Origin: Escherichia coli
GTDB taxonomy: Bacteria > Pseudomonadota > Gammaproteobacteria > Enterobacterales > Enterobacteriaceae
Reading direction: 5' to 3' (one strand)
Assembly (NCBI RefSeq): GCF_045037415.1
Contig: NZ_CP173438.1
Length of the DNA stretch: 64,000 nucleotides
Shown: positions 14,565 to 22,074 of the stretch, in pieces
Numbering within the stretch: the stretch's first letter is position 1
How the letters are laid out: each line of letters opens with the position of its first letter
Made by a program: the position numbers and the translations under genes
Notes under the pieces: model-generated
Database searches by the model: none
Told to the model about the DNA's origin: nothing
The model's input: only the letters and a program-made list of their open reading frames with translations

Positions 14565-15607
14565 AAAAATGGTCACGCCACCTGCTCGCGGCGGGTGCTC
14601 TGGCACTGGGCATGAGCGCCGCTCACGCCGATGACAACAACACGCTGTATTTCTACAACTGGACCGAGTACGTGCCGCCAGGACTGCTTGAACAGTTCAC
14701 CAAAGAAACCGGTATTAAGGTTATCTATTCGACTTACGAGTCGAACGAAACCATGTACGCGAAGCTGAAAACGTACAAAGACGGTGCCTATGACCTGGTG
14801 GTTCCTTCAACCTATTACGTCGATAAAATGCGTAAAGAAGGGATGATCCAGAAGATCGACAAGTCGAAGTTAAGCAATTTCAGCAACCTCGATCCAGACA
14901 TGCTCAACAAGCCGTTTGACCCGAATAACGACTATTCCATTCCGTATATCTGGGGTGCGACGGCGATTGGCGTTAACGGTGATGCGGTGGATCCGAAATC
15001 TGTCACCAGCTGGGCCGATCTGTGGAAGCCTGAGTACAAAGGCAGCCTGCTGCTGACCGACGATGCCCGTGAAGTGTTCCAGATGGCGCTGCGTAAGCTG
15101 GGCTACTCCGGTAACACCACCGATCCGAAAGAGATTGAAGCTGCATACAACGAGCTGAAAAAGCTGATGCCAAACGTCGCGGCGTTTAACTCCGATAACC
15201 CGGCGAACCCGTATATGGAAGGCGAAGTTAACCTCGGCATGATCTGGAACGGTTCTGCTTTCGTTGCACGCCAGGCGGGTACGCCAATTGATGTGGTGTG
15301 GCCGAAAGAAGGCGGTATTTTCTGGATGGACAGCCTGGCGATCCCGGCAAATGCCAAAAACAAAGAAGGCGCGCTGAAATTGATCAACTTCCTGCTGCGC
15401 CCGGATGTGGCAAAACAGGTTGCTGAAACTATCGGTTATCCAACGCCAAACCTTGCGGCGCGTAAGCTGTTAAGTCCGGAAGTGGCGAACGATAAAACGC
15501 TCTACCCGGATGCTGAAACCATTAAAAATGGTGAATGGCAGAATGACGTTGGCGCAGCCAGCAGCATTTATGAAGAGTATTATCAGAAGCTGAAAGCAGG
15601 ACGTTAA
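14561..15607 (+). CDS. potD: Spermidine/putrescine periplasmic binding protein
   Basis: 348-aa ORF with signal peptide MKKWSRHLLAAGALALGMSAAHA; overlaps the potC stop. Confidence 0.96.
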   Translation: MKKWSRHLLAAGALALGMSAAHADDNNTLYFYNWTEYVPPGLLEQFTKETGIKVIYSTYESNETMYAKLKTYKDGAYDLVVPSTYYVDKMRKEGMIQKIDKSKLSNFSNLDPDMLNKPFDPNNDYSIPYIWGATAIGVNGDAVDPKSVTSWADLWKPEYKGSLLLTDDAREVFQMALRKLGYSGNTTDPKEIEAAYNELKKLMPNVAAFNSDNPANPYMEGEVNLGMIWNGSAFVARQAGTPIDVVWPKEGGIFWMDSLAIPANAKNKEGALKLINFLLRPDVAKQVAETIGYPTPNLAARKLLSPEVANDKTLYPDAETIKNGEWQNDVGAASSIYEEYYQKLKAGR

Positions 15608-15611
15608 TTCA

Positions 15612-15648
15612 GCAAGCGGGCGGTGATATTACCGCCCGTTTTTTATTT
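15612..15648 (+). terminator. Rho-independent terminator of the potABCD operon
   Basis: GCGGGCGGT-GATATT-ACCGCCCG hairpin followed by TTTTTTATTT, 5 nt after the potD stop. Confidence 0.8.
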
Positions 15649-15664
15649 AGCAAGGATGTGGCTA

Positions 15665-16126
15665 ATGAGCCAGGACAGTAGAGTTTTCTTTCGTATATTC
15701 TTCGGTATCGGTCTGGTACTGATCCTCATTTCTGTTGTTATCTTTTATAACCAGTTCACCTATAGCAAAGACGCGATTCATACTGAAGGCGTCATTGTTG
15801 ATACCGTCTGGCACTCCAGTCATTCTCATCGCACGGGTAAAAATGGTTCGTGGTATCCCGTCGTTGCCTTTCGTCCGACGCCAGATTACACGCTAATTTT
15901 CAATTCGAGTATTGGCAGCGATTTTTATGAAGGCAGCGAAGGCGATAAAGTTAATGTTTATTATTCTCCAGGACATCCTGAAAAGGCTGAGATAAATAAC
16001 CCGTGGGTTAATTTTTTTAAATGGGGGTTTATCGGCATTATGGGCGTTATTTTTATCTCCGTCGGTTTATTAATCAGTATGCCCTCCTCTAAAAAGACAC
16101 GCAGGAAACGGAAGTCCCGCCCATGA
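15665..16126 (+). CDS. ymfA: Inner membrane protein YmfA (unknown function)
   Basis: [30 protein letters not shown]...; two hydrophobic segments; start at the MSQD methionine gives 153 aa. Confidence 0.8.
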
Positions 16127-16911
16127 AAAAAATCATAATATTGCTCAGTTTACTGATACTCCTGCCTCTGACGGCAACCAGTAAGCCCTTAATTCCAATA
16201 ATGAAGACACTTTTTACGGATGTTACCGGTACTGTACCAGATGCTGAAGAGATCGCGCATAAAGCCGAGCTTTTTCGCCAACAAACCGGAGTTGCACCGT
16301 TTATTGTGGTTTTACCCGACATTAATAATGAAGCCAGTCTCAGGCAAAATGGCAAAGCGATGCTGGCGCATGCGGCATCTTCAATGAGTAATGTAAAAGG
16401 AAGTGTTCTGTTACTCTTTACTACCCGCGAGCCACGGTTAATTATGATAACCAACGGCCAGGTTGAAAGCGGTCTGGACGATAAACATCTCGGCCTTCTG
16501 GTAGAAAATCACACGCTGGCTTATTTACATGCGGACCTCTGGTATCAGGGTATCAATAATGCATTGGCTGTTTTACAAGCACAGATATTAAAACAACCGA
16601 CGCCACCACTGACATATTATCCGCATCCCGGACAACAGCATGAAAATGATCCACCCGGCAGTACCACGACATTAGGCCTTTTTGCCTGGGCAGTTGCATT
16701 CATCGTCTTTGCTGCATTTTTTAACTACACAACGCGCCTTTATTATGCGTTAAAATTTGCAGTGGCGATGGCTGTTGCCAATATGGGTTATCAGGCTTTA
16801 TGTTTGTATATCGATAACAGCTTTGCGATTACCAGAATATCGCCACTCTGGGCAGGGCTGATTGGTGTCTGTACGTTTATTGCCGCGTTACTATGGACGA
16901 GTAAACGGTAA
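16123..16911 (+). CDS. ycfZ: Inner membrane protein YcfZ (unknown function)
   Basis: 262-aa ORF with N-terminal signal/TM and C-terminal TM segments; start overlaps the ymfA stop (ATGA). Confidence 0.85.
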
Positions 16912-16937
16912 AAGAGGCAGTAAAGTTCGCGTGTATT

Positions 16938-17037
16938 ATGCCGGATGCGGCGCGAACGCCTTATCCGGCCCACAAAACCCGCAAATTCAATTAATTGCGC
17001 CCCTTCACAGGCCTGACAAGCGTAGCGCATCAGGCAA
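16938..17037. repeat. REP/BIME element (two REP units)
   Basis: GCCGGATGCGGCGCGAACGCCTTATCCGGCC and GCCTGACAAGCGTAGCGCATCAGGC, typical E. coli REP palindromes between the convergent ycfZ and cobB. Confidence 0.85.
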
Positions 17038-17048
17038 TTTTTCCCGCT

Positions 17049-17870
17049 TTATAATCCCTTCAGCAACTTTTCAACAAACTCTGGCACCACCTGGCTTGCC
17101 GGACCGTAATATTTCTCGGCAAATTCATTACCAACCTGACTCGGTTCAAGATTCAGTTCCACGGTGTGCGCGCCATGCAGTTTCGCTTCGTGAACAAACC
17201 CAGCCGCCGGATAAACATGCCCCGAAGTACCAATGGCAATGAAAATATCGGCCATCGACAACGCCATATAAATTTCATCCATGCCGAGTGGCATTTCGCC
17301 AAACCACACTACGTGCGGGCGCAAGGGTGCCGGGAACTGGCAACAATGGCATTTATCTTCTGGCGTAACGTCTCCGGTCCAGTCGAGGACCTGGCCACTT
17401 TGCGAACAACGTACTTTCAGCAATTCCCCATGCATATGAATCACATTGGTATTGCCTGCGCGTTCATGCAGGTTATCGATATTTTGCGTCACCAGCAAAA
17501 AGCGATCGCCGAGAGCATCTTGCAGTTTCGCCAGCGCAAGATGTGCAGCGTTAGGCTGAATTTCTGGCTGCTGCAACTGTCGACGACGGGCGTTATAAAA
17601 CGTTTGCACCAGTTCAGGATCGCGATCAAAACCTTCCGGCGTTGCCACATCTTCAACCCGATGTTCTTCCCACAGGCCATCTGCGGCGCGAAAGGTACGA
17701 ATACCTGATTCCGCAGAAATCCCTGCCCCTGTCAGTACGAGTACTCTTGGTTTTTCCATTGCTTCCGGCACCACTTTATCTCTGAAAAAAATACGCTGAC
17801 GCAAACGCTCGCGCAGGCGGCGTTTATTTTTACGAAAACGACTTAACCGATGACCCCGACGCGACAGCAT
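17049..17870 (-). CDS. cobB: NAD-dependent protein deacylase (sirtuin) CobB, long isoform
   Basis: 273-aa ORF; Arg/Lys-rich N-terminal extension then [24 protein letters not shown] (Rossmann GAGISAESG) and a Zn-binding Cys cluster. A short isoform would start at the internal Met (about 17759). Confidence 0.93.
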
Positions 17871-17885
17871 AGCAACCTCTGTTGA

Positions 17886-18797
17886 TTAATCGGTTAGATG
17901 TAGGAAGGCCGCACCACGCATTCCTCCCGCATCACCGTGGCGCGCGCGTTCAATGCGCGGAACACGAGCTACAGGTAAGAGATGACGAGGCAACCTTTCC
18001 GCCAGTTGCGTTGTGATTGCCGGGAAATTCGATAAGCCACCACCAATGACGACCAGGTCAGGGTCAACAATGGTCAGGATATTTCCCAGACAAACCGCTA
18101 ATAAATCCAGATAACGCTCAACGTGCGCCCTTGCCTGCTCATCGCCTTGATCATAAAGCGCAATGATCTCAGGAGCCTGCAACGGTTGATGATAATAGTG
18201 TTGATACAGCCACGCAAAACCGCGACCAGACAGATAATTTTCAATGCAGCCATGCTGACCACAGCCGCAGCGGCGTAACGGGAAATCCAGCCCCATCATG
18301 GTTAACGCATCAACCGGCAGACGCATATGGCCAAACTCGCCGGTAATATAGCTTTTACCGGTAATTGGTTTACCGTTGAAAATCAGCCCGCCGCCAACGC
18401 CGGTGCCGAGAATCAACCCCATCACCAGTGGATATTGAGTAAATTCATCATCCCATGCTTCAGAAAGGGCAAAACAGTTGGCATCGTTATCAAGGCGTAC
18501 ATCGCGATCAAGACGTGCGCTCAGGTCGGCACGCAGCGGTTTACCGCTGGCAGCAGGGACATTGGCGGCATACAGCGTACCATCTTCTGTTTCCGGCATA
18601 CCCGGAATACCAATGCCGACAGAACCTTTACAGCCAAAACGTTGGTCAGCTTCGGCTACCAGCTCGCACACTGCATCTAAAAATGCGTCATAGCTGTCAC
18701 GCGGTGTCGGCACCCGCTTTTCCCACTGCAACTGCCGACCGCTATCAAACACGCCTAGCGCAATTTTTGTTCCACCAATATCAAACCCGTAATACAT
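17886..18797 (-). CDS. nagK: N-acetyl-D-glucosamine kinase
   Basis: [18 protein letters not shown]... ROK-family kinase; start at MYYGF gives 303 aa. Confidence 0.93.
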
Positions 18798-18825
18798 TGC
18801 CGCTCCTTGTTTTAATGTACTGCCT

Positions 18826-22074
<3,249 letters not shown>

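Follow-up and report, generated by a model that had tools for sequence, protein, structure and literature searches.

The stretch of DNA analysed here (hereafter, the window) spans 64,000 nucleotides of Escherichia coli contig NZ_CP173438.1 (assembly GCF_045037415.1) and carries the sirtuin gene cobB directly after nagK (Table 1). An earlier note on this DNA had read the gene as cobB with its long-isoform start, opening with a highly basic 37-residue leader, containing an internal Met (MEKPRVLV) able to give a short isoform, and having its ATG 15 bp from the nagK stop behind a GAGG Shine-Dalgarno (SD) sequence. All of these points held: the peptide quoted for the leader is exact, the internal ATG coincides with the published start of the short protein, CobB-S, and the stop, spacer and GAGG lie where the note had placed them. 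In E. coli SK1144, RefSeq labels the same DNA as cobB, 822 nt long, and many complete E. coli genomes match it at 100% DNA identity, with the RefSeq order lolE–nagK–cobB followed by convergent ycfZ–ymfA–potD. In the ORF list, nagK runs on to a TTG at 18857 and overlaps the end of lolE (18826); in RefSeq it starts at the ATG at 18797, 28 nt past the lolE stop, and the location of the ROK domain agrees with this.

Table 1. Features of the nagK–cobB region, in window coordinates.
Feature	Position	Strand	Evidence
nagK (N-acetylglucosamine kinase, ROK family; stop TAA 17888–17886)	17886–18797	minus	Pfam ROK E = 1.3e-71, RefSeq
Candidate CobB-L sigma70-like site TTGCGT-17-TATCAT, –347 to –319, inside nagK	18189–18217	minus	relaxed position weight matrix (PWM)
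GAGG Shine-Dalgarno serving the long start, 5 nt before its ATG	17876–17879	minus	anti-SD duplex
ATG, long-isoform start	17868–17870	minus	first start codon past the in-frame stop (TAA of nagK)
cobB CDS, CobB-L (273 aa, 822 nt; stop TAA 17051–17049)	17049–17870	minus	ORF list, translation, Pfam
37-residue Arg/Lys-rich N-terminal extension (leader), CobB-L only	17760–17870	minus	translation, conservation
Weak candidate CobB-S sigma70-like site CTGCGC-17-TATTTT, +55 to +83	17788–17816	minus	relaxed PWM
Low-synonymous-diversity stretch, codons 26–40, with conserved TTTTTCAGAGA and ATGGAAAAACCAAGAG	17751–17795	minus	codon entropy
Met38 ATG, CobB-S start (236 aa here)	17757–17759	minus	translation, published start
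Sir2 catalytic domain, residues 48–221, common to CobB-L and CobB-S	17208–17729	minus	Pfam PF02146

The catalytic core is unambiguous. Pfam PF02146 (SIR2) matched CobB with E = 4.4e-54 and 183.6 bits (cut-off 24), covering profile positions 1–180 of 180, and the GAGISAES motif (G48–S55), H147, C155, C174, C176 and C177 were invariant in 32 sequences; residue 147 is the active site and Cys155 and Cys174 are Zn ligands (PMC10965786). The core is homologous to the class III sirtuins (SIRT5-like; Sir2Af1/Af2, Sir2Tm), with PDB matches to human and zebrafish SIRT5 and to Archaeoglobus and Thermotoga Sir2 at E values of 1e-22 to 1e-46. E. coli CobB chains in the PDB (1S5P, 6RXJ and others) are around 100% identical over residues 39/40–273. 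NAD+-dependent deacylase activity has been shown for the essentially identical K-12 CobB (PMC6209979, PMC12926920), and the protein encoded here is predicted from its sequence to share it.

Every solved CobB structure begins at residue 39 or 40 and lacks the leader. That all crystal structures represent the short form, that the extension is dispensable for the Sir2 domain and that CobB-S is catalytically active (PMC6209979, PMC12926920) could be taken to mean that the 37-codon extension is an annotation artefact, with translation truly starting at Met38 and the upstream ATG fortuitous and untranslated. The composition and conservation of the leader point elsewhere. It contains 12 Arg, 3 Lys, 1 His and 3 acidic residues, for a net charge of +12, and its 15 Lys and Arg in the first 37 residues are the maximum among the 65 ORFs of at least 150 aa in the window (next highest, 9; median, 4); such a content (at least 15 Lys plus Arg) is reached by 0.06% of all 37-aa windows. 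A scan of species-representative genomes yielded 80 Enterobacteriaceae loci, the best 80 of 449 relatives, from genera including Escherichia, Citrobacter, Salmonella, Kosakonia, Enterobacter, Cedecea, Buttiauxella and Klebsiella. The comparison of the leader across Enterobacteriaceae that the earlier note had pointed to thus covers 80 species, and the leader was kept in all 80 (best 80 of 449 relatives). Fourteen of its residues are invariant among these best 80 of 449 (M1, R4, R8, L9, F12, K16, R17, R22, L23, R24, Q25, R26, F28 and F29). Because the invariant Arg and Leu positions are encoded by two to six synonymous codons in the same set (best 80 of 449 relatives), the conservation acts at the level of the protein. 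The leader had a median dN/dS of 0.116 and the core one of 0.030 (best 80 of 449 relatives), and the most variable part of the leader is the linker at residues 32–37 (mean conservation, 0.69). The leader is real coding sequence under protein-level purifying selection. Together with the strong and conserved SD of the long start and with CobB-L itself, which has been purified and seen in native-locus westerns (PMC6209979, PMC12926920, PMC10965786), this pattern leaves the artefact reading with a negligible probability; we regard it as refuted by the way the extension is conserved and by westerns in the literature.

The two proteins have an established biology. Reports on Salmonella (2010) and E. 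coli (2018, 2026) describe CobB-L and CobB-S in both organisms, differing by 37 N-terminal residues; both isoforms are produced in K-12 DH10B (PMC6209979) and, as judged from anti-CobB westerns, from the native locus in MG1655 (PMC12926920). Polyphosphate (KD 48.8 nM) and dsDNA are bound by CobB-L only, and inhibition by polyphosphate is limited to CobB-L (PMC12926920). Binding of c-di-GMP requires CobB residues 1–37, with R8, R17 and E21 needed, so that CobB-S escapes it, and the tail also mediates CobB dimerization (bioRxiv 10.1101/362293); in Salmonella, SeCobB-L is oligomeric and SeCobB-S monomeric, the oligomerization being mediated by the N-terminal domain (PMC10965786). The long-isoform N terminus is reported to be acetylated by YiaC/NatB, with lowered activity as the result; in published experiments c-di-GMP, polyphosphate and N-terminal acetylation each cut CobB-L deacetylase activity, and bound DNA left it unaffected. 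The c-di-GMP residues R8, R17 and E21 (RxLxE motif) are present in the leader of the window. R8 and R17 do not vary among the best 80 of 449 relatives, and position 21, where three residue types occur in total, is Glu in 63%; Asp and Gln are found there in listed sequences.

AlphaFold (32-sequence alignment) predicted the Sir2 core confidently, a single helix at residues 3–27 with low pLDDT (52–69) and a disordered linker at residues 28–41; on this model, the tail is probably a tethered polycationic helix that is not integral to the fold. A profile built from the leader only and searched against 1.84 billion representative proteins returned 30 matches, all of them truncated, frameshifted or chimeric fragments of enteric CobB-L, with none in other protein families within this library, which is clustered at 50% identity so that cobB orthologs are collapsed. 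Class III sirtuins share the core with CobB; a CobB-like tail was not found by the leader profile outside enteric CobB fragments. The predicted long helix, along with the mix of basic and hydrophobic residues described in the literature (PMC6209979, PMC10965786), might instead indicate that the tail is chiefly a membrane-targeting amphipathic helix or signal-like sequence and not an appendage that binds polyanions and ligands. We consider this very improbable. The hydrophobic moment of the tail gave no amphipathic signal (0.45, compared with a shuffle mean of 0.52; 67% of 2,000 shuffles equalled or exceeded the tail), a hydrophobic core segment is absent, the net charge is +12, and binding of c-di-GMP, polyphosphate and DNA has been shown directly (bioRxiv 10.1101/362293, PMC12926920).

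At the long start, the 15-nt spacer between nagK and cobB (17885–17871) reads TCAACAGAGGTTGCT and differs from that of K-12 by one SNP. The anti-SD duplex of this start has a predicted energy of –6.5 kcal/mol, ranking it among the strongest 5% of the window's ATG triplets, and GAGG, GGAG or GGGG precedes the long ATG in 81 of 81 sequences (best 80 of 449 relatives). The junction is conserved as well: 80 of the 81 sequences (best 80 of 449 relatives) have a nagK-like ORF ending 2–19 nt 5′ of the cobB ATG. The earlier note had taken the short spacing to imply expression coupled with nagK. The conserved junction upholds this in part, but the linkage is not strict, as a promoter within nagK, between –417 and –30, is also able to drive CobB-L (PMC6209979).

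Published constructs from K-12 define where the two isoforms are driven. A fragment from –417 yields both isoforms, a –30 fragment or the bare ORF behind a terminator yields CobB-S only, and a construct beginning at Met38 yields no CobB (PMC6209979); these results place the CobB-L promoter in nagK (–417 to –30) and the CobB-S promoter within +1 to +111 (PMC6209979). The leader-coding 114 nt of the window are identical to those of K-12, and the K-12 experiments therefore transfer directly. The earlier note had suggested that the internal Met could give the short isoform; the second start is real, but in K-12 CobB-S has its own promoter within +1 to +111 (PMC6209979).

An alternative is that CobB-S arises only by internal initiation at Met38 on the nagK–cobB mRNA and that cobB, with no promoter of its own, is strictly coupled to nagK. 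Several observations are compatible with this: the tight junction is conserved, a weak SD-like GGUG/GGAAG and an unstructured A-rich region lie at Met38, and no consensus promoter was found in the leader-coding DNA. As quoted in PMC6209979, an earlier study using reporters and RT–qPCR also located nagK–cobB promoter activity only upstream of nagK and saw zero activity in cobB –400 to +151. Against it stand the K-12 plasmids that start at –30 or carry the ORF only, which make CobB-S without CobB-L, the failure of the Met38 construct to make anything (PMC6209979), and the identity of the +1 to +111 DNA to K-12. We judge this exclusive form unlikely. The two routes are not mutually exclusive, and internal initiation on the long mRNA may contribute beside the dedicated promoter.

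Sequence scans did not by themselves localize these promoters. A sigma70 consensus promoter and terminator scan of 16900–19000 found zero promoter-like sites above threshold. A relaxed sigma70 PWM, a heuristic with hexamer frequencies drawn from general knowledge, was then applied to –450 to +150; its best site there, at –347 to –319 inside nagK, scored 9.3 bits, below the shuffle maxima (95th percentile, 11.4). The –10 end of this candidate is present at –318 to –320 in 52 of 81 sequences (best 80 of 449 relatives), and its coordinates equal the BPROM call of Umehara 2018, inside the active –417 to –30 fragment. A weaker candidate for CobB-S, at +55 to +83, scored 4.0, again not above the shuffle maxima, with its –10 end at +83 in 35 of 81 sequences (best 80 of 449 relatives); it falls within the Umehara 2018 BPROM call at +51 to +83. 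Since neither PWM score exceeds those of shuffled sequences, the promoter positions rest on the published reporter constructs and not on sequence. Hentchel 2015 gives no cobB transcription start site, and the main text of the Ribo-RET paper (bioRxiv 10.1101/520783) does not name cobB.

The internal start is widely kept. At codon 38, which precedes EKPRVLV, 76 of 81 sequences have ATG, 3 have GTG and 2 carry no start codon (best 80 of 449 relatives). The GTG codons belong to three Citrobacter (L013, L015 and L016) and the non-start codons (GTA and ATA) to Yokenella regensburgei (L063) and an uncultured Klebsiella MAG (L065); in the Yokenella sequence, an ATG stands at codon 33. In the genomes with an altered codon 38, CobB-S may start elsewhere or be absent. 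The anti-SD duplex at Met38 is weak (–3.6 kcal/mol), a value that around 25% of ATGs reach.

Synonymous variation was lowest at the two starts. With synonymous diversity measured as codon entropy normalized by amino acid in 8-codon windows (n = 266), codons 1–8 tied for the lowest value in cobB, and the windows starting at codons 26–33, jointly covering codons 26–40, held ranks 1–7 and 9 of 266 (rank 0 = lowest). In the alignment, near-invariant TTTTTCAGAGA precedes Met38, and ATGGAAAAACCAAGAG lies at Met38 and beyond. Codon choice was also skewed here: Arg30 (17781–17783) is AGA in 69 of 81 sequences, whereas the ten remaining Arg positions of the leader hold one AGA between them and are almost always CGN (best 80 of 449 relatives). 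Separately, Arg42 (17745–17747, minus strand) is AGA in 21 of 22 aligned species, so that, with Arg30, the rare AGA codon flanks the internal start. Synonymous variation in cobB has its two deepest troughs at codons 1–8 and 26–40, and extra nucleotide-level constraint therefore appears to act at each start. The pattern points to a nucleotide-level signal at both cobB starts, and codons 26–40 are likely a promoter-proximal or translation-initiation region for CobB-S.

RNA structure does not account for this constraint. RNAalifold found no conserved structure near Met38 (six weak pairs with zero covariation), the predicted fold of the Met38 region is less stable than those of its shuffles (z = +1.17), and an Rfam scan of 15000–21000 gave no match. 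A structural RNA switch at Met38 was rejected on the absence of covariation and the weaker-than-shuffled folding. An unstructured, constrained stretch at Met38 is compatible with a promoter or with an initiation region kept open. We also considered that codons 26–42 (TTTTTCAGAGA...ATGGAAAAACCAAGAG, with AGA at Arg30 and Arg42) could form a conditional regulator of the CobB-L:CobB-S ratio, for example as the target of a protein or sRNA or as a rare-codon pause that couples translation of the long form to initiation of the short one; this is speculative and quite improbable.

We favour, with a probability of roughly nine in ten, the reading that 17759–17870 is the 5′ end of cobB with a dual role, coding for the CobB-L tail and carrying the expression signals of CobB-S. 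On this reading, translation of CobB-L would start at the ATG at 17870 behind GAGG, 15 nt past the nagK stop, an anatomy that, like the conserved linkage to nagK, was observed here. The same leader DNA would supply CobB-S with a promoter and with an initiation region free of structure; CobB-S would begin at Met38 (17759) and amount to the Sir2 catalytic core alone, unregulated. Production of both proteins, their promoters and the ligands are taken from the literature, and synonymous constraint at both starts was seen in our alignments; the exact promoter and transcription start positions, the setting of the L:S ratio, the share of internal initiation on the long mRNA and any translational coupling to nagK are inferred. 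The tail, on which purifying selection was seen here, would be a flexible, probably helical polycationic appendage outside catalysis, rendering CobB-L regulatable and differently localized through sensitivity to c-di-GMP and polyphosphate, association with polyanions and DNA, oligomerization and an acetylatable N terminus.

The locus corresponds to the CobB-L/CobB-S pair described in Salmonella enterica (Tucker & Escalante-Semerena 2010) and in E. coli K-12 (Umehara et al. 2018), with the same gene in the same place after nagK (ycfX), the same second Met and the same R8, R17 and E21. The 37-residue tail is the same as in K-12, across 114 identical nucleotides, and the proteins differ at the C terminus only: the isoforms of this strain measure 273 and 236 aa, as in Salmonella, and those of K-12 measure 279 and 242 aa with an extra KAGSIA tail. 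A single ORF giving two proteins with a common C-terminal core and differing N-terminal extensions is also known from infB (IF2-alpha/beta) and clpB. The cobB case differs from these in that CobB-S is assigned its own promoter inside the long-form coding sequence (PMC6209979), beyond an internal ribosome-binding site. The anatomy of the CobB-L/CobB-S pair, its promoters and the functions of the tail are already known from the literature, and our check alters little in the existing picture of cobB. Its additions are quantitative: the presence of the tail and the nagK linkage throughout the species sampled (best 80 of 449 relatives), purifying selection on the tail, a leader profile that matched enteric CobB-L fragments only in the library searched, and starts located at synonymous troughs. 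E. coli relies on CobB as its main lysine deacetylase; the tail makes one of its isoforms respond to c-di-GMP, polyphosphate and N-terminal acetylation and bind DNA. Because the tail sets isoform responsiveness, correct annotation of both cobB starts matters to users of the gene.

Several minor features were seen around the gene. At 17030–17060 (minus strand), CobB ends here in ...KLLKGL, compared with ...KGLKAGSIA in K-12, through a 1-nt T insertion (GGATTA-T-AAAGCGGG) beside REP-like repeats; around 1,058 of 5,202 complete E. coli genomes are at least 99% identical to the cobB 3′ end of the window, and 3,945, including K-12, fall in a 90–95% band. The convergent cobB–ycfZ intergenic region holds REP-like palindromes GCCGGATGCGGCG/CGCCTTATCCGGC and an AGGCCT-centred palindrome (16940–16969 and 17003–17020), and part of the 16900–18000 query is present two to six times per E. 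coli genome. A 180-aa ORF with a GTG start (17166–17708, plus strand) lies antisense to the core of cobB and is most likely a by-product of coding on the opposite strand. Finally, nagK codons ~8–13 (18759–18775, minus strand) contain the exact sigma54 ChIP–seq site IS12, GTGGAACAAAAATTGCG (Bonocora et al. 2015), an intragenic site oriented in the sense direction, toward nagK–cobB.
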